From contig CAVUXE010000041.1 in the NCBI GenBank assembly GCA_963745235.1, positions 1 to 14,899 of the forward strand: a DNA stretch of 14,899 nt. Direction: 5' to 3'. This DNA comes from an uncultured Spirochaetota bacterium. GTDB taxonomy: Bacteria; Spirochaetota; Spirochaetia; SZUA-6; Fen-1364. Positions 2,481-8,844 of the stretch are shown piece after piece; the stretch's first letter is position 1, and every line of letters begins with the position of its first letter. The position numbers were made by a program, and so were the translations under genes. The notes beneath the pieces are model-generated. The model was not told the DNA's origin. It worked only from the letters and a program-made list of their open reading frames with translations, and did not search any database.

Positions 2481-2631
2481 ATCTGCTTATGGAGGGAGGT
2501 CTTGGAGCCGCCGCTGTTGCCAGTTCTACTCTTCCCGGAGCGGTTGTTCGGCGATCTCGGCGAGTCGGTTAGCGGGGATTCCATCGAGTTCAAGATGGAT
2601 CAAGTCCACGGTTGTCATGGCTGTCTGCTCT

Positions 2632-2763
2632 TCACTCGACCTCCACCCACTTCGTCTTTGCGGCGATCTCCCTCGTAAGGCGGCAGAAGGCAATGTCATA
2701 GTCCTCGAAAGTCAGCGTGATGAGGTAGCGTTGAGTGAGTTGCAGCGTGGTGCTTGTTGCCAT
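2632..2763 (-). CDS. Small hypothetical protein (43 aa, MATSTTLQLTQRY...)
   Basis: Translated by hand; GAGG upstream of ATG; co-oriented with the - strand cluster; below the ORF track size cutoff. Confidence 0.4.
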   Translation of the reverse strand: MATSTTLQLTQRYLITLTFEDYDIAFCRLTREIAAKTKWVEVE

Positions 2764-2804
2764 CGCTGATGACCTCTCGACCCTTTCCCGACATCTGGCA
2801 AGCG

Positions 2805-3008
2805 TCAGTCGGTGCTTCTGAACCGGCGGCAGATCGCTCGTGTCTGCGCTCTGGCTGCCGCCTCACCCCAGGTCTCGCTGGTGTCCCCCTCGTTCCAGAA
2901 CTCGCAATCCCTGTGAGCATCAAACAGCCGTTGGTAGTTGAGACAAGAAAAACAGGTGGTGCCACGCCGCAGCAACTCTGCGTATTCGGCGTCGGATGGT
3001 GTTTTCAT
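2805..3008 (-). CDS. Small Cys-rich protein (67 aa, CxxC...C...C), possible zinc-binding phage-type protein
   Basis: MKTPSDAEY...TCFSCLNY...DCEFW...ICRRF; ATG overlaps the stop of the upstream ORF (ATGA, 3005-3008). Confidence 0.55.
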   Translation of the reverse strand: MKTPSDAEYAELLRRGTTCFSCLNYQRLFDAHRDCEFWNEGDTSETWGEAAARAQTRAICRRFRSTD

Positions 3009-3175
3009 AGGACGCTTTCCACTTTGTCCGGCGTGGGCTGCGGCGAACCGAGGTCTCGAAGGAGCAGTCGTGCCAGGTATTCGCTGATGAACAAGTTGCG
3101 GACACTCGCCTGCTGCTTTATCTGGTTCTTCAAGAAAACGGGGATCGTCAGGGACGCTTTCATAGTTTGCTTCAT
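3005..3175 (-). CDS. Ribbon-helix-helix (CopG/Arc-like) DNA-binding protein, 56 aa
   Basis: Hand translation MKQTMKASLTIPVFLKNQIKQQASVRNLFISEYLARLLLRDLGSPQPTPDKVESVL: alternating beta strand, helix, SEYL helix; AAGGTAAGGG upstream; absent from the ORF track. Confidence 0.6.
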   Translation of the reverse strand: MKQTMKASLTIPVFLKNQIKQQASVRNLFISEYLARLLLRDLGSPQPTPDKVESVL

Positions 3176-3364
3176 CCCTTACCTTGTGCGGGGAAATCGT
3201 GATCCTACGCATTTCCACAAAGAAACTTGTTCGACTATTTCCTGCTGCTTCGGGGCGTGAAGGCGCTCTCGCATGTCCGACTCATCACGAGCGCTCGCTA
3301 TGATCTCGGCGAGGGGATGAGGCAAAAAAACGAGGGGCAAAGGCGCTTGAGCAAGCACTCCTGT

Positions 3365-4423
3365 TCAGTCGTCACCGTTCAATCTGCTTTGTCGTTCTGC
3401 TACCAGCCCGTCAACGACCCGCTGTGGCAATCCCTCGTATAGCACGCACTCCTGTACGAACTGCGTGAACTGATGATTGCGGTCAAACCACAAGTCCAGT
3501 TTCCAGTCCTTTATCAACAAGGCGATCATTCTGGGCTTCGCAAACGCCCATCTGCGTTCTTTTCTCGCATTCTCTTCATCCTTCCTGGCACGTTCCTTTC
3601 TTGCTTTCTCCGCTTTGATGGCTTTGACCATCTCGCCCTGTGCCAATACAAGCATCGCATAAGGATCATAGCCGAAGTTCGTGACACGCTGGTTGATGTC
3701 GGATGCATCGTGGACTGTTCGCCAGAGTGGGAGATTTTCGATGAATTCGTTGATTCTCCATTCGTCCTTGATGGCAAATACCGCCTCTATATCCTTCATT
3801 CGTGGAACACCCTTCGTCAGAACAAGTGGATAGGATTCGTGATGCTTTTCAAGGTAATGGATGTGAAATGGTTCCAAGGGTACTTGGCAGAGAATGGATT
3901 CAAGATTGAATGGACTGATCTTCTTTTGTACACCAGTTCCCATCTCTTTGGAAAAACCTTCAGTAGTAGTAGTCCCCTTGTTACTACTACTGGGGTTTTT
4001 GTTGCTAACTCCCTTGTTGCTATACTCCCTTGTTCTTTTACTGTGTCGGCTGTGAGAGTTCTCTGACTGTGAGTTCTCTGTATCAGAGTGATCTCCGGTC
4101 AGTGTGTCTGCAATCCGTAACTCTGACGGCTTGTCATTCCACTCGTAAATCCAGCCCACATTCCTGTTGCCAACACGCTTGGCTTTCAGGTGTAGGAATC
4201 CTTCGTCTTGGAGTTGAGCGATGGCTGCGTAATACCTGGCTCGTGACAACTTGAATCGACGCCTGACTTGCCACATTTGCGTATCCCAGGAGTCCACTTG
4301 TCCGAGGATGTAGTGAAGGATGGCAAAGGCATCGACGGAAAGGTCATCGTCGTCGTATGCCTCCATGTCCACTCGCTTGTATTTGGCTTTGTCTTCGACG
4401 TTCTTCTTGCTTCGCTGGATCAT
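3365..4423 (-). CDS. Phage/plasmid-type HTH replication initiator (replisome-organizer-like)
   Basis: N-terminal DLSVDAFAILHYIL...SRARYYAAIAQLQDEGFL winged helix followed by a low-complexity repeat linker. Start moved to ATG 4423 (GAGGAAGG upstream, ATGA overlap with the leader ORF). Confidence 0.7.
   Translation of the reverse strand: MIQRSKKNVEDKAKYKRVDMEAYDDDDLSVDAFAILHYILGQVDSWDTQMWQVRRRFKLSRARYYAAIAQLQDEGFLHLKAKRVGNRNVGWIYEWNDKPSELRIADTLTGDHSDTENSQSENSHSRHSKRTREYSNKGVSNKNPSSSNKGTTTTEGFSKEMGTGVQKKISPFNLESILCQVPLEPFHIHYLEKHHESYPLVLTKGVPRMKDIEAVFAIKDEWRINEFIENLPLWRTVHDASDINQRVTNFGYDPYAMLVLAQGEMVKAIKAEKARKERARKDEENARKERRWAFAKPRMIALLIKDWKLDLWFDRNHQFTQFVQECVLYEGLPQRVVDGLVAERQSRLNGDD
3961..4100. 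repeat. Iteron-like repeats and palindrome inside the rep gene; putative replication origin
   Basis: GAGTTCTCTG at 4056 and 4071; TTGTTGCTA at 3999 and 4014; CCCTTGTT at 3975, 4011, 4027; perfect 11-bp inverted repeat 3961-3971/3982-3992. Confidence 0.6.
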
Positions 4424-4518
4424 GATGCCTTCCTCGCTGCATCCAGTCTCCCGTGGCATAAATCTCTGCGTGCTTTTGTCATACATCGGCTGCGGGTCTT
4501 ACATTCTGTTCGCTTCAT
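4420..4518 (-). CDS. 32-aa leader peptide translationally coupled to rep
   Basis: GGAG-N6-ATG; MKRTECKTRSRCMTKARRDLCHGRLDAARKAS; TGA overlaps the rep ATG (ATGA). Confidence 0.5.
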   Translation of the reverse strand: MKRTECKTRSRCMTKARRDLCHGRLDAARKAS

Positions 4519-4566
4519 CTTATTCTCCATGCGGTCTGTAAGGCGTATTCGCCTCGGCTGTGCCGT

Positions 4567-4662
4567 AAACAAAAAGCCCATCGCTGCCTGGCGGGGCTTT
4601 GATGGGCTTCTTCAAGACACCGGTCACGAATGTCCGCCAACATTCGCAACCGTTCTTGTCTC
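4567..4662 (-). ncRNA. Two-hairpin cis-regulatory RNA with complementary loops; second hairpin is terminator-like
   Basis: Hairpin 1 at 4621-4652: 13-bp stem with two G-U pairs on the - strand, loop UGGCGG. Hairpin 2 at 4574-4609: AAGCCCAUC/GAUGGGCUU, apical loop CCGCCA, followed by a U-rich tail. Confidence 0.65.
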
Positions 4663-4979
4663 TAACTATGCGGTGGGTGTCTCTGTATCTTTGCTATGCG
4701 ATTCTCTCCAAGTGGGTGCGTGGGGCTGGTGGCTTCCACAGATGCCTGCTCGAAAACCAAGCCAGCGATACGATCAATCGTTTCCACATATGAGCGAGTT
4801 TCCTCATATGAGTGTGGAACGACCTTGAAGCGAACTGGCTTACCTGCTGCGATCCACTCGTCAACGAACGCTTCAAGAATCCTGCTTCCGGCCATCTTGC
4901 TTTCATTTGCTTCCTGGCGAAGTCGGGTAAGTGCGTCGGTCGCTCGATCTGGATAGCCATCTTTCCTGGGGTTGCTCAT
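4662..4979 (-). CDS. Hypothetical protein; N-terminal half possibly an RHH-like regulator
   Basis: 105 aa ORF; ALTRLRQEA...SRILEAFVDEWI two-helix pattern; start codon lies inside a palindrome. Confidence 0.4.
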   Translation of the reverse strand: MSNPRKDGYPDRATDALTRLRQEANESKMAGSRILEAFVDEWIAAGKPVRFKVVPHSYEETRSYVETIDRIAGLVFEQASVEATSPTHPLGENRIAKIQRHPPHS

Positions 4980-4984
4980 ATGAG
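4780..4984. promoter_or_regulatory. Repeated operator-like palindrome CTCATATGAG
   Basis: Perfect copies at 4803-4812 and 4975-4984; one-mismatch copy at 4785-4794. Confidence 0.5.
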
Positions 4985-5045
4985 TTCACATCAAACTATG
5001 CTTTGGGGAATGATCCGCCGAGAAAACCTATGGCGGTAGAGCCAG

Positions 5046-5074
5046 AAAAAGCCCTGGCTAAACATCCAGGGCTT
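5046..5074 (-). terminator. Rho-independent terminator
   Basis: AAGCCCTGG-N8-CCAGGGCTT then TTT on the - strand, downstream of the 5104-5397 ORF. Confidence 0.65.
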
Positions 5075-5103
5075 GTCCGTCAGGATCGGGTGTGCAGAAC
5101 ACC

Positions 5104-5397
5104 TTACGCTATTCCAGCAGTCCTCTTCTCGGCTCGATGTTCTTTGAGCCACGACCGCATAATACGATCCCCCAGGCGTCCGAGTTGGCTGGCAAGTTTC
5201 TCGTCATACTGCATCTCGAAGACATCAGCCACGAACTGATCCCACTCGTCGTCGGTGAAGGACGCTTCCAGTTCACTCATATTCGGCTCTCCGAACAGGA
5301 AGATGGCGATGCCTTCCTCTTGCAGCGTGATCCTGGCTTTGGTGGCTCTGTCGTCGGTCGAACGCCTGGGGTCAAGATGCGGGTTACGCTTCTTCAT
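5104..5397 (-). CDS. Hypothetical protein (97 aa)
   Basis: ATGA overlap with the upstream ORF; followed by a terminator. Confidence 0.6.
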   Translation of the reverse strand: MKKRNPHLDPRRSTDDRATKARITLQEEGIAIFLFGEPNMSELEASFTDDEWDQFVADVFEMQYDEKLASQLGRLGDRIMRSWLKEHRAEKRTAGIA

Positions 5398-5795
5398 ATT
5401 TGTATCCTCATCTTGAACATCACGACATCCACTTTCAGTCCTGGCGTCACCAGAGATTCAGCCCTCTCCACCCACGCACCCTTCTGGGCAGCGGCGACGA
5501 TCTCTGGATTGGCTGTCCAGTAATAGTCACGCTCATTATCAACCCTGGTGACGACCCACTTCTTTTCCATCAGTTCAGAGAACGTCCTGGCAAGCAGGTC
5601 TTTCTCTTTGGTGGTATTGATCTCGAACTTGCCTCCGGTTCCGTGGTCATAGACCATCATCGAGGCGAGTAGCGACCGATACATCACCTTGGCATTCATG
5701 TCGTTGGTGATGTGTCCCAGGTATTCATGCTCGATGGTCCGGTCGATCAGAGCATTCGGTGGATGATCCGCTCGTGTCATGATGATAATGTTCAT
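5394..5795 (-). CDS. Hypothetical protein (133 aa, MNIIIMTRADH...)
   Basis: Start moved to 5795, which gives an ATGA overlap with the upstream stop (5792-5795). Confidence 0.6.
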   Translation of the reverse strand: MNIIIMTRADHPPNALIDRTIEHEYLGHITNDMNAKVMYRSLLASMMVYDHGTGGKFEINTTKEKDLLARTFSELMEKKWVVTRVDNERDYYWTANPEIVAAAQKGAWVERAESLVTPGLKVDVVMFKMRIQI

Positions 5796-5983
5796 TCGGG
5801 AAACAACCTCCCGAGTTCCTTGCCGATGCTGACGGTCATCGCATCTGCCATAGCCTTCAGGTATTCCTTCTTCTCGGTATCCGTCTCTGCCTCTGCCTGT
5901 TCTTTGATCTTGGCGATCTCGTGAAACCAGTCTTTCTGATCCTGGCTCAACTTTGCCCACACCTGGTCTGCTGTCATCCTCAT
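5792..5983 (-). CDS. Small helical hypothetical protein (63 aa)
   Basis: AGGAAGGAG upstream of ATG 5983; MRMTADQVWAKLSQDQK... Confidence 0.6.
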   Translation of the reverse strand: MRMTADQVWAKLSQDQKDWFHEIAKIKEQAEAETDTEKKEYLKAMADAMTVSIGKELGRLFPE

Positions 5984-6056
5984 CTTGTCACTCTCCTTCC
6001 TTGATTTGCGTGCGGGCCCTGCCCGCACGCTTTCTCTCCATTACGCATTACGGGCA

Positions 6057-7004
6057 TTACACTGCCTGATACTTTCCGGTGCCTGTAATGCGTGTAATCT
6101 GCCCGTCCTTGTGCATCCGATGGATCAAGACCCTGGCGGAGTTCAGCGTGATGTCCATTTCTTTTGCGAGTTCGGAGGGCGTCTTCGGTTCCTGCAGAAT
6201 CTCCAGGGCGGCGGCACGGCTGTCAGAGATTTCCTCCACCGGCTCCGGCTCATCGGACATCTGCCACACCCCATCGACCAGTTCCAGGGGCAACTGCATC
6301 TCCTTGATGTCTCGACCAGTGATCGAGAGCGTTCCCTTCGTCTTGTTGCGGGGGCGGCGCAACTCTGCCACTGCATCCGCCACTGCCGTGATGCCCTGCG
6401 ACCCGATGGGGGACAAAACGAAATCGTCCTTTTTGTTCTTGGACGAGTGATGCATGGCGACCAACGCCAGGTGGTAAGTGTCGGCGAGGTTCTTGAGTTG
6501 CAGCAGCGAGGCGTAAGTGTTGGCGTAGTTGCTGCCAAGCACGACCTCGCCGCCCAACTGCGCCAAGGTGTCCACGACAACCAGTCTCGGGTGCAACTTC
6601 TTGATCTTCGCCTCAATGGTTGCCATCGCCCGACCAGGCGGAAGGCGGTCATAGGTGATGATCGAAAGTGAATCAAGTGGAGTCCCGTTCCGTAACATGT
6701 TGAGACGGTCGAAAACTCGCCGCTGCCCGTCTTCCAGTGCCAGATACAATACTTTCTGCCTGTGGATCGGGCGGTCGAAGAACCGCTTGCCCGTCGCCAC
6801 CGAGGTAGCAATCGCCAGCGACAGCAGCGACTTGCCGATCTTCGGTGACCCCACCATCACAGTGAGTCCCTCAACCAGCACATCGGGTATCACCCAGTGC
6901 AGCGGATCGAAACGCCTGCGTAGGAGTGATGATCCGCTGATCACCACATCGTCAGATACCTTGCCCTTCTTATTGCCCCTTTGGGGCGCTCCCCCGTTAT
7001 GCAT
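6057..7004 (-). CDS. AAA_25 / RepA-like (RecA-fold) helicase-ATPase with C-terminal winged HTH
   Basis: Walker A GSPKIGKS, VLYLALED, Walker B LVVVDTL, MHHSSK, GSQG; C-terminal TPSELAKEMDITLNSARVLIHRM. Confidence 0.85.
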   Translation of the reverse strand: MHNGGAPQRGNKKGKVSDDVVISGSSLLRRRFDPLHWVIPDVLVEGLTVMVGSPKIGKSLLSLAIATSVATGKRFFDRPIHRQKVLYLALEDGQRRVFDRLNMLRNGTPLDSLSIITYDRLPPGRAMATIEAKIKKLHPRLVVVDTLAQLGGEVVLGSNYANTYASLLQLKNLADTYHLALVAMHHSSKNKKDDFVLSPIGSQGITAVADAVAELRRPRNKTKGTLSITGRDIKEMQLPLELVDGVWQMSDEPEPVEEISDSRAAALEILQEPKTPSELAKEMDITLNSARVLIHRMHKDGQITRITGTGKYQAV

Positions 7005-7095
7005 TCTTGTTCCTCGATTCTTGTGCTGGCTCTTGGGTTTGGGAGCGGGCAGGGTTTGTGAAGATGTCGTCAGAGAGAGGTAGATAGGAAGGCAT
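6997..7095 (-). CDS. 32-aa leader ORF overlapping the helicase start
   Basis: MPSYLPLSDDIFTNPARSQTQEPAQESRNKNA; ATG follows GGAG and the U-tract of the leader hairpin; stop overlaps the helicase start (ATGcaTAA). Confidence 0.4.
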   Translation of the reverse strand: MPSYLPLSDDIFTNPARSQTQEPAQESRNKNA

Positions 7096-7210
7096 AAAAA
7101 AACTCCTTTGGGACAATACCCTCACGCAGTCCGCACACGGCAGACTAAAGCGTCAGTGGTATTCCCCAACAGGAGTTTCACTCCTTCCCTGGGTGCGTGT
7201 GCGAGGGTGT
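7091..7210 (-). ncRNA. Long-hairpin attenuator-like leader RNA
   Basis: AAACUCCU/AGGAGUUU, UUGGGGAAUACC/GGUAUUGUCCCAA, ACGC/GCGU, AGUCUGC/GCGGACU stems then U7-AUGCC; apex CGUGUGCG (7132-7139) is complementary to CGCACACG (7196-7203). Confidence 0.6.
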
Positions 7211-7542
7211 AATCTCACACACTGGGAGCAAGGGGTAACCTTGCCCTCCGAATATATCTCAACTTGTCGGGAAAAGCCATTCACTACGGGAAGGGGTGCC
7301 AGCCCCGCCAAGCCGTCAGGGGAGAGCCGAGCGGTGTGGATCACCGGGTTAGACGCCCCGAAACGGGTTTTGTCCGCCCAAAAAACCGGTAACCACAAAT
7401 GAGGCCGGATACGCCCGTTTTTCAGAAATGTGGAGTCATGGAGGTAAGAGGCGAGAAGGCACCGTCAAAACACCATTGATGTAGAAACCCCGTAAAATAC
7501 AGCGTTTTGTGGCATCCACGCGGAAAAGGCACGAAAAGGTAA

Positions 7543-7584
7543 TGCCGCCAAGGGGAATCGAACCCCTGACACACGGATTTTCAG
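7543..7584 (-). tRNA. 3' half of tRNA-Phe(GAA); att core fragment, not an intact gene
   Basis: CTGAAAA TCCGT GTGTC AGGGG TTCGATT CCCCT TGGCGGC A = anticodon loop, 3' anticodon stem, variable loop, perfect T-arm, acceptor strand; no D-arm or 5' acceptor strand upstream. Confidence 0.88.
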
Positions 7585-7704
7585 AAGCACATTGATTTTC
7601 TGAATCACAGATGGGAAAGCCCCTGATTCGTGCGGCTTTCTTCTTGACAAAACTCCTCCAAAAAACAATTCGTAGGCGCTCGTGTAGCCAAATGGAAATA
7701 TGCT

Positions 7705-8844
7705 ATGGCTAAATTCCATTCGCCCTTCACTCTTTACCAGCGACGAATGAAGGACGGCAGAGCCGTCTGGTATTTCCGCTTCTACCACAACGGCAGACGG
7801 ATGTCTGGGCAATCCACAGGAGAAACCCACCTCGCTCTTGCCCGTGAGTATGTGATGAAACTCTACAAGGACGGACGATTGGCTCCGTCCTCTCGTCTCA
7901 CATTCACTGAATACGCCAAAGGCTGGTGGGAGCCTCGCTGTGCCTATGTGAAATCACAAGAGGAAAGAGGACGGACACTTTCTGCCTCACACCTTGCGAC
8001 GATGCGGGGCTGCCTGGCTCATCACCTTATAGCCTTCTTCGGGGATACTCGGCTCACAGAAATCTCATCGAGCAGCATCATGCGGCTTTTCGCCGTCTTG
8101 AAAGAAAAGGGCTTGGCGTCCGCCACACGAACACAGATTTATGCGGGGCTACGGGTGATGATGACCTACGCTTTTCGGCAGCGGTTGATCGAGGAGAACC
8201 CGTGCGCCTATGTTCAGCCGCCAATCGTGCGCTCCAAACCAAGGGGCATCCTGACAAAAGGCGAAGTGAAACGGATGTTCGACTCCAAGACAATCAGAGC
8301 GGTGTGGAAGAATGACAGGCTATCCTACTGCTGTGCGCTCACCGCTGCGGCGACCGGGATGAGACTTGGAGAAATCCTTGCGCTGCAGCGTGAGGACATT
8401 CACATCGGCAAGGAGGGAGCCTTCGTCGATTGCCTTCACTCCTGGTGCCAGGTATCGCAGATGCTGAAAGACACCAAGACGCACGAACAAGCCCGCATCC
8501 CACTACCCAGCAAGGTCGCCAAGCACCTTGCGGCGCTGGCACGGCTCCATGATGGGTTCATTTTCTCAACAGACGGCACGAGACCTGTGAAGCACTTTGT
8601 CCCAGAAGGTGCGCTGCGGCGAGCCATGCGTCGGATCGGGATCAGCGAGGAAGAGCGGCTCCGCCGTGGGATTTGCTTTCACTCATTCAGGCACCTGTTC
8701 GTCTCTCTGTTGCGAGGCGAAGGAATCCCTGATCCTGTCGTTCAGTCGCTGTCTCGGCATCGGACGGCGGCTATGCTGACAAACTATTCCCACTTTGCCT
8801 TCATGGACTACTCGGCGGTGATCAAGAGTTTGGAAGCGTTGTAG
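7705..8844 (+). CDS. int: Tyrosine recombinase / phage-type integrase
   Basis: ATGMRLGEILAL (R), TKT (K), FHSFRH (HxxR), SRHR (H), TNYSH (Y); N-terminal arm-binding-like WYFRFY...STG; 120 bp from the tRNA fragment. Confidence 0.95.
   Translation: MAKFHSPFTLYQRRMKDGRAVWYFRFYHNGRRMSGQSTGETHLALAREYVMKLYKDGRLAPSSRLTFTEYAKGWWEPRCAYVKSQEERGRTLSASHLATMRGCLAHHLIAFFGDTRLTEISSSSIMRLFAVLKEKGLASATRTQIYAGLRVMMTYAFRQRLIEENPCAYVQPPIVRSKPRGILTKGEVKRMFDSKTIRAVWKNDRLSYCCALTAAATGMRLGEILALQREDIHIGKEGAFVDCLHSWCQVSQMLKDTKTHEQARIPLPSKVAKHLAALARLHDGFIFSTDGTRPVKHFVPEGALRRAMRRIGISEEERLRRGICFHSFRHLFVSLLRGEGIPDPVVQSLSRHRTAAMLTNYSHFAFMDYSAVIKSLEAL

Follow-up and report, generated by a model that had tools for sequence, protein, structure and literature searches.

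We analysed contig CAVUXE010000041.1 (C41) of an uncultured Spirochaetota bacterium over its whole length of 14,899 nucleotides (nt), in the following called the window, and in particular positions 4420-4662, which lie in front of a gene for a putative replication initiator (rep). The contig belongs to a genome bin of 5.85 Mb in 104 contigs (completeness 85.7%, contamination 5.9%); its G+C content is 54.3%, that of rep 48.6% and that of the genome 61.2%. Along the minus strand runs a gene series made up of an AAA_25 ATPase, two small open reading frames (ORFs), an ORF of 105 amino acids (aa) and the rep-like gene. Two hairpins and a short leader ORF are found on the same strand between the 105-aa ORF and rep; the coordinates of these and of the other features are given in Table 1. 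A first-pass annotation had taken this arrangement for a kissing-loop RNA switch with a coupled leader peptide, related in its logic to the replication control of IncI/IncB plasmids.

Table 1. Features in and around the region in front of rep (positions in the window; SD, Shine-Dalgarno sequence; bp, base pairs)
Feature	Position	Strand	Remarks
Apparent rep cassette	2520-4690	-	last 28 nt of the 105-aa ORF, both hairpins, leader ORF, rep and about 845 nt downstream
rep-like gene, 352 aa	3365-4423	-	N-terminal winged helix; own SD GAGGAAGG at 4428-4435
Leader ORF, 32 codons (MKRTECK...)	4420-4518	-	GGAG at 4525-4528, six nt before the ATG; no family found
Promoter-like site TTGTCA-18-TACATT	4476-4505	+	9/12 match; putative antisense start
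Small hairpin 3 (GAGGCG AAUA CGCCUU)	4540-4555	-	z -1.30; 19/200 shuffles fold as well; not significant
Hairpin 2, predicted intrinsic terminator	4567-4612 (including U-tract)	-	core GCCCAUC/GAUGGGC; loop CCGCCA (4589-4594)
Hairpin 1	4615-4662	-	5-bp outer and 14-bp inner stem, three G.U pairs; tip GGCG within UUGGCGG (4634-4640)
105-aa ORF	4662-4979	-	no family in Pfam, PHROGs or NCBIfam; 85%-identical homologue in L003 and L018
Second predicted intrinsic terminator	5046-5074	-	AAGCCCUGG-8 nt-CCAGGGCUU, then U's; 3' of a 97-aa ORF
AAA_25 (RepA/DnaB-like) ATPase	6057-7004	-	PF13481, E 9.4e-26; first gene of the minus-strand replication-side module
attP core	7545-7586	-	42 nt identical to the 3' part of tRNA-Phe(GAA) on contig C91
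Tyrosine integrase	7705-8844	+	PF00589, E 6.1e-16; phrog_1, E 1.4e-52

Folding bore out the annotated pair of adjacent minus-strand hairpins, and both are clearly more than chance. Hairpin 1 has a free energy of -23.5 kcal/mol (z-score, z, -4.96), and none of 200 shuffled sequences was equally stable. Its outer stem pairs 4657-4661 with 4615-4619 and its inner stem 4639-4652 with 4621-4634; a contiguous stem of at least 14 bp is found in 129 of the 6395 simple hairpins of the genome. The plus-strand form contains two A.C mismatches and reaches -16.3 kcal/mol, so that the minus-strand form is favoured; the G.U pairs of this stem had been taken before to indicate that strand. The minimum-energy fold closes on the tetraloop GGCG (4635-4638), and the 6-nt loop UGGCGG (4634-4639) requires that the closing U.G pair is opened, at a cost of about 2 kcal/mol. 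The UAG stop codon of the 105-aa ORF (4662-4664) sits at the base of hairpin 1, the outer stem of which starts one base later, at 4661. A U-rich stretch, UUCUUGUCUCU, forms the tail after the plus-strand form of the hairpin, and on the other side a single nucleotide separates hairpin 1 from hairpin 2.

Hairpin 2 (-21.9 kcal/mol, z -3.07) consists of a 12-bp stem (4601-4612 paired with 4571-4582), an internal loop of 3+3 nt and an apical stem of 3 bp. The U-rich tail ascribed to it in the annotation is present, the tract UUUUUGUUU following the core stem directly at 4567-4575. Since a G+C-rich stem is succeeded by UUUUUGUUU, hairpin 2 is an intrinsic (Rho-independent) terminator in form. A simple terminator scanner overlooked it, the loop being longer than 8 nt. 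In having such a stem and U-tract after a stop codon the region resembles an ordinary tandem hairpin/Rho-independent terminator, and the terminator at 5046-5074 is of the same type and shares the same GGGCUUUUU design. It differs from an ordinary terminator by a loop region of 18 nt, by the exceptionally stable 14-bp hairpin before it and by the complementarity between the tip of that hairpin and the terminator loop. Because predicted terminators are located at both sides of it, the 105-aa ORF seems to be a unit of its own, each small gene being bracketed in this way.

Also the annotated ORF of 32 aa with its ATGA overlap on rep was recovered. It is preceded by a GGAG, and its TGA (4420-4422) overlaps the ATG of rep (4421-4423) to form ATGA at 4420-4423. 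An ATG-initiated ORF of at least 25 codons that is preceded by an SD and ends in such an overlap arose in 0.86% of 20000 shuffles of the spacer, or in 5.7% when the SD was not required; the leader ORF is moderately more than chance. The start of rep was placed at the ATG 4421-4423 and not at the upstream ATG at 4486, because the N-terminus M-I-x-R is common to Rep and its three closest relatives, which are P0004 (93% identity, a fragment of 185 aa), P0005 (37%) and P0006 (30%) according to a full HMMER search. No structure beyond chance is predicted at this start (4405-4460, z -0.47; 4412-4560, z -0.74), and the ribosome-binding site (RBS) of rep is not sequestered.

The description of Rep as a phage-type initiator stands in part. 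Its N-terminal 170 residues match PHROG families for replication initiation and primosomal proteins (E 1.4e-9 to 7.6e-3), and among its 26 aligned relatives from the full HMMER search HTH_36 was recognised in 11 and DnaB_2 in one, whereas neither Pfam nor NCBIfam contains a family for Rep itself. In a profile search against PDB, MarR/GntR winged helices were the only hits, none of them better than E 0.034. In the interior of rep, within the inter-domain linker, there are tandem direct repeats of 15-16 nt (4008-4039 and 4053-4082) and an inverted repeat of 19 nt (3953-4000). The same linker shows a 3-nt deletion at 3972 in one public contig and extra ENSQS repeats in P0004. The repeats at 3953-4082 might represent an origin placed within the initiator gene, as in phage lambda, or just a variable low-complexity linker.

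Hairpins 1 and 2 had been described as carrying perfectly complementary 6-nt loops. Six Watson-Crick pairs are indeed possible, and seven if a U.G pair is included, but the minimum-energy loop of hairpin 1 is GGCG, and UGGCGG becomes available when the closing U.G pair is opened. As a free duplex the loop pairing would be worth -12.8 kcal/mol, and the predicted probability of being unpaired is about 1.0 for both GGCG and CCGCCA. When both loop regions were shuffled, a match of at least 6 nt returned in 4.9% of the trials (P 0.049); it is easily recreated in this manner because both loops are rich in G and C. A genome survey of adjacent hairpin pairs, defined by stems of at least 9 bp and a gap of at most 30 nt, gave 111 pairs, three of which, the studied pair included, have a loop-loop complementarity of at least 6 nt. 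One would expect 1.19 by shuffling and 1.3 by cross-pairing unrelated loops (143 of 12210 pairings). Thus, the loop complementarity is only weakly more than chance.

The hexamer TGGCGG/CCGCCA takes rank 46 of the 2080 strand-symmetrised hexamers of this genome and occurs 1.3 times per kilobase (kb). There are 16 matches to TGGCGG in the window where 8.63 +/- 2.79 are expected, a number that none of 200 shuffles reaches, and TTGGCG is found in 17 of 6395 hairpin tips genome-wide compared to a mean of 13.2 per hexamer. Most likely, UGGCGG and CCGCCA match by coincidence, given how common this G+C-rich hexamer is; if the match has a role, it would at most be that of a tertiary contact which helps to close the large loop of the terminator. 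The general lesson is that in a genome of 61% G+C a G+C-rich loop match of 6 nt, taken alone, is weak evidence. The heptamer TTGGCGG was also considered as a strand-specific motif and discarded: all of its 5 matches are located on the minus strand, yet 22 of 200 shuffles reach 5 as well. As a separate observation, a non-coding block on the minus strand at 7295-7330, upstream of the AAA_25 operon, reads GGC-TTGGCGG-GGCTGGCAC by eye. It resembles, again by eye and without a BLAST match, positions ~590-630 of the metagenome contig L003, which are located upstream of a homologue of the 105-aa ORF.

The fold of the whole region keeps both hairpins, with a minimum free energy of -51.6 kcal/mol, against -34.2 kcal/mol if the two loop sequences are forced into a nested helix. 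A nested alternative fold of the antiterminator type was not found. Because forcing the loop sequences together costs 17.4 kcal/mol, a switch of the attenuator type drops out, which leaves a tertiary kissing contact as the one conceivable interaction of the loops.

Comparison with Rfam, a check proposed together with the annotation, gave 8 weak matches at E up to 10 and no family within 4400-4700. A covariance model of both hairpins, built from the single sequence, found only the window among 151 genomes, that is the own genome and 150 relatives; its other three hits had E values of 0.063-0.88, and the hairpin pair is present in one copy in the own genome. An undescribed conserved RNA motif, as had been proposed, finds no support in recurrence under this single-sequence model. 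Likewise, blastn in a distant mode with the 301-nt region gave no match in 72,556 plasmid or 50,697 phage records.

A homologous-protein search with the rep protein found only the protein itself, collections of genome contigs and of viral contigs gave no relatives, tblastn with it against plasmids and phages gave no match, and it matched in none of 60 relatives (0/60). Among 400 genomes of the phylum one distant protein was found (G122, E 6.8e-9), and the region upstream of it is unrelated DNA of low G+C content. Other parts of the element could be aligned to L018, from the same-genus genome G001, and to L003. The DNA identity to the window is 82.6% (L018) and 76.4% (L003) in the AAA_25 gene and 86.1% in the 105-aa ORF for both. 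This homology ends at window position 4691, with 28 nt of the 105-aa ORF left before its stop codon, and resumes in L018 at 2519 as judged by BLAST. In place of the 2171 nt of the window, L018 has an unrelated stretch of 344 nt (7834-8177). L003 (1022-1119) diverges at the same upstream point and shows the first 98 nt of the L018-type replacement, then the contig ends. The breakpoint 4690/4691 alters the C-terminus of the 105-aa protein. The hairpins are absent after the homologous 105-aa ORF in both L003 and L018, and G001 has no match to rep.

Since homology stops at 4691 and in L018 resumes at 2519, everything from the hairpins through the leader ORF and rep to about 845 nt beyond it can be regarded as one cassette. 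Judged from these alignments, a discrete 2.2-kb rep cassette, with the hairpins at its upstream edge, is inserted into an otherwise conserved element backbone. Such a layout fits a dedicated control region, or else a terminator which stems from the cassette's former neighbour.

Natural variation over 3300-5200 was followed in public contigs from four runs belonging to four studies (X2, X4, X5 and X8). Pieces from X2 (4517-4668) and X8 (4458-4709) span both hairpins, with 0 differences; coverage in X5 ends at 4581, and X4 has none between 4356 and 4788. Throughout 3300-5200 the contig pieces, which come from soil, freshwater-sediment and peat metagenomes, show no base differences with few exceptions. 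These are one piece with a 3-nt indel at 3972, and short divergent pieces at 3307-3342, 3736-3770 and 3945-3991 (35-47 nt, 3-5 differences) whose flanks are unrelated. The element, or the strain that hosts it, has a wide distribution and hardly varies.

We propose that 4420-4662 constitutes a terminator or insulator with an accessory hairpin at the edge of the rep cassette, followed by a probably coupled upstream ORF. This is the explanation we favour, and we hold it with a confidence that goes about half way. It builds on the established structures, terminator features, ORF geometry and cassette boundary, and from there we infer terminator function, read-through and translational coupling. 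Acting as a Rho-independent terminator, hairpin 2 would stop transcription at the end of the 105-aa ORF unit, so that rep would be transcribed only by read-through or from a promoter that escaped recognition. In favour of this, no minus-strand promoter-like site was found within 3300-7700. Hairpin 1 would be a very stable accessory stem-loop placed on the stop codon, most likely a stabiliser of the 3' end or a second barrier, and on the plus strand it could serve as a weak terminator for antisense transcripts. As the 32-codon ORF is preceded by an SD and ends in ATGA on the start of rep, ribosomes finishing it may reinitiate there; rep would be served by its own SD, too.

Several observations weigh against this explanation. 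With 18 nt and a 3-bp apical helix, the loop region of hairpin 2 is atypically large for a simple terminator. A G+C-rich match of 6-7 bp between exposed loops is uncommon, an event of about 1-5% on one null. The tip of hairpin 1 carries the exact hexamer UUGGCG, which is reportedly named in the title of a paper on ColIb-P9 as the loop motif of the antisense target of that plasmid. Furthermore, the hairpins travel with rep and not with the upstream ORF, as would be expected of a dedicated control region. Finally, an efficient hairpin 2 would leave rep without a recognisable promoter, which argues for some regulated read-through.

From known systems one could most readily think of antisense control of the copy number, in the manner of R1, IncI or pMV158 plasmids. 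A plus-strand countertranscript would then regulate rep. From a start near 4512 it would run through the RBS of the leader ORF as well as the complement of hairpin 2, ending at the complement of hairpin 1 with the tail UUCUUGUCUCU. By way of the UUGGCG-type loop it would meet the rep mRNA and block translation of the leader ORF and hence of rep, while the CCGCCA of hairpin 2 would be a competitor in cis for the loop of hairpin 1. We consider this unlikely, and yet it is the alternative that survives best.

Likeness to R1 (copB-CopA/CopT-tap-repA) consists of an upstream small gene, leader stem-loops, a short coupled leader ORF, which is predicted here, and then rep. The region differs from R1 in that there is no similarity to the antisense families in Rfam and in that the 105-aa ORF is not demonstrable as a repressor. 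R1, moreover, is not known to have a sense-strand terminator between copB and repA. With pMV158 (copG-RNAII-repB) it has in common that the target hairpin comes right after the stop of the upstream gene, where the antisense terminator would be its complement. Similar to the attenuation systems of pT181 and pIP501, a sense-strand terminator is located ahead of rep, but here no pre-emptor/antiterminator fold exists and the antisense RNA is putative. A further difference from this group is that Rep is not of the rolling-circle type by any match that was obtained. The correspondence in gene order with R1 copB-CopT-tap-repA and pMV158 copG-RNAII-repB, as these are laid out in parts of PMC8053102, PMC4485353 and PMC5304414, speaks for a countertranscript. 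So do the non-random leader ORF, the UUGGCG at the tip of hairpin 1, the plus-strand promoter-like site, the U-rich stretch after the plus-strand form of hairpin 1 and the co-occurrence of the hairpins with rep in the cassette. However, the promoter-like site is a minimal one, and such sites appear at chance frequency on the plus strand of the region (2 found, 2.6 expected). Hairpin 1 is weaker on that strand and has its two A.C mismatches there, and the RBS of rep is free of sequestering structure. In addition, the searches reported above gave no antisense or countertranscript RNA family of Rfam in the region, no similar DNA among the plasmid and phage records and no second instance of the hairpins among the 151 genomes.

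The comparison with the IncI/IncB group can be carried further. In these plasmids, according to a portion of PMC8053102, a CGCC is situated beside the RBS of rep, formation of a pseudoknot activates translation of rep, and translation of the leader unmasks the RBS. Like IncI-alpha/IncB/IncL-M (ColIb-P9 Inc RNA, repY, repZ), the region has a UUGGCG/GGCG stem-loop tip upstream of a leader ORF, a complementary CGCC-containing sequence downstream, and a short leader ORF overlapping the start of rep. Unlike in IncI/IncB, the complement (4589-4594) belongs to the apical loop of the terminator and is separated from the AUG of rep by about 165 nt. There is no minus-strand CGCC between 4518 and 4423, the nearest other copy being at 4542-4545, the RBS of rep is not buried in structure and Rep is without a Pfam family. 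Because the stretch leading to rep is unstructured and rep has its own SD, the unmasking on which IncI, IncB and R1 depend has no counterpart here. The region is thus no member of the IncI/IncB group, be it by the position of the CGCC partner, by sequestration of the RBS or by similarity of RNA and protein families. The kissing or pseudoknot logic that the first-pass annotation had borrowed from these plasmids is not supported, with the CGCC partner away from the RBS of rep, the RBS unstructured, no alternative fold and a common hexamer.

Portable control regions are a further model. In the PFP/RepJ plasmids of Pseudomonas, REx-C modules consist of portable stem-loops and a putative leader peptide and recombine independently of their neighbours, as part of PMC5304414 describes. 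The gene order in the window is similar to that of these modules, and the hairpins, leader and rep likewise make up a cassette with a sharp homology breakpoint. They differ from REx-C in the lack of any similarity among the 72,556 plasmid records and in that control region and rep move together in the two comparisons.

Alternatively, hairpin 1 and the terminator might constitute a small RNA (sRNA) of about 100 nt on the minus strand, either standing alone or derived from a 3' untranslated region, with one of its loops pairing with a target elsewhere. The classic shape of a stem-loop followed by a terminator hairpin with U-tail would agree with this, and a regulatory role of sRNA terminator loops has been demonstrated, likely one that works without base-pairing (PMC11979758, in part). 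However, the minus strand has no promoter-like site upstream, and neither the own genome nor any of 150 relatives contains a second copy or a detectable relative of the pair; we regard an sRNA as improbable. We would judge as equally improbable that the hairpin pair is an undescribed module for the control of rep, in which the UUGGCG-type loop pairs in cis with the terminator loop or in trans with a countertranscript. If that were true, the copy number of the element would determine to what extent transcription, and translation of the leader ORF, extend to the initiator.

Intramolecular kissing of the two loops within one transcript, switching termination or the expression of rep, is very improbable. 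Both loops are predicted to be unpaired, their 6-7 pairs would be worth the -12.8 kcal/mol given above, the closing U.G pair can be opened for only about 2 kcal/mol, and closure of the large terminator loop might depend on such a contact. On the other hand, the statistics of the loop match are weak, and a loop-loop helix would leave the terminator stem intact and offer no obvious off-switch. From the geometry of kissing complexes one would also expect steric strain in a 6-bp coaxial kissing helix between hairpins of ~19 and ~15 bp that are joined by one nucleotide. A limited literature search found no description of a kissing partner within a terminator loop in the control of rep.

Least probable of all is a role at the level of DNA, by which copies of TGGCGG (inverted at 4634-4639, minus strand, and 4589-4594, plus strand, with a further TGGCGG and a CGGCGG near-copy at 5014-5036) would bind Rep or a regulator or form part of an origin, the stems being incidental palindromes. 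The excess of TGGCGG in the window and its presence in attP and in the intergenic regions on either side of the 105-aa ORF would favour this, but the hexamer is common genome-wide, so that the enrichment is not specific to the element, the G.U pairs make the minus-strand RNA 7 kcal/mol more stable than the plus-strand form although a DNA palindrome needs none, and the repeats at 3953-4082 inside rep are better candidates for an origin. Two further candidates were rejected in comparisons from general knowledge: a nut- or put-type site of processive antitermination, since hairpin 2 is itself the terminator, and an insertion sequence (IS) or attC-like end, as there is no supporting repeat at the other boundary of the cassette.

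Concerning the 105-aa ORF, a role as a repressor of the CopG/RHH type is at most a lead, with protein atlas scores of at most 0.80 (0.78 for a CopG cluster) and an AlphaFold model too poor for a fold search (pLDDT 54.9). A palindrome-containing repeat with the core CTCATATGAG or a close variant of it occurs in three copies, at 4782-4813 and 4972-4985; one of them overlaps the start codon of the ORF and two are inside it. By eye, the start-codon copy and one internal copy are also present in the 85%-identical homologue (L003 ~729-741 and 903-915). The CTCATATGAG-type repeats may be operator sites.

The wider surroundings are those of a mobile element. The attP core is located between the integrase gene and the AAA_25 operon. 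An intact tRNA-Phe(GAA) is found at 59269-59341 of contig C91 in the same genome, with flanks unrelated to the window. The window thus carries attP beside the integrase and C91 carries the empty attB. Because the flanks of the tRNA-Phe match on C91 are unrelated, the element was assembled in its excised, episomal attP form. The designation as a tRNA-associated integrative element is supported by the integrase and the tRNA-Phe attP, but no tRNA gene is present in the window, only the 42-nt 3' fragment of tRNA-Phe, the intact gene being on C91. The element is excisable, integrase-bearing and tRNA-linked.

At the right contig end (13600-14899) there is a copy of an IS with an integrase-core transposase and an ATPase gene, which recurs at 92-100% identity on contigs C58, C48, C6 and C65 and probably explains why the contig ends there. 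Two plus-strand ORFs at 10-1649 have weak matches below the cut-off to an EVE domain (E 0.0089) and to Abi_alpha (E 0.0019), and may represent defence-type cargo of the element. ARAGORN predicted two different tmRNA genes in the genome bin (G000, contigs C15 and C99), which fits the contamination of 5.9% or a mixed bin.

Should the loop match be functional in spite of the above, it would be a new joining of kissing loops and attenuation, two classic devices of plasmid copy control, here outside the Enterobacteriaceae, in an uncultured soil bacterium and on an integrative element. On present evidence, the region probably amounts to an ordinary terminator, supplemented by a strong accessory hairpin and followed by an upstream ORF that is probably coupled to rep. 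More firmly established are the discrete 2.2-kb rep cassette and an element that was assembled excised, with the empty tRNA-Phe attB in the same bin. The excised form and the empty attB are consistent with autonomous replication, for which control of the initiator would be needed.

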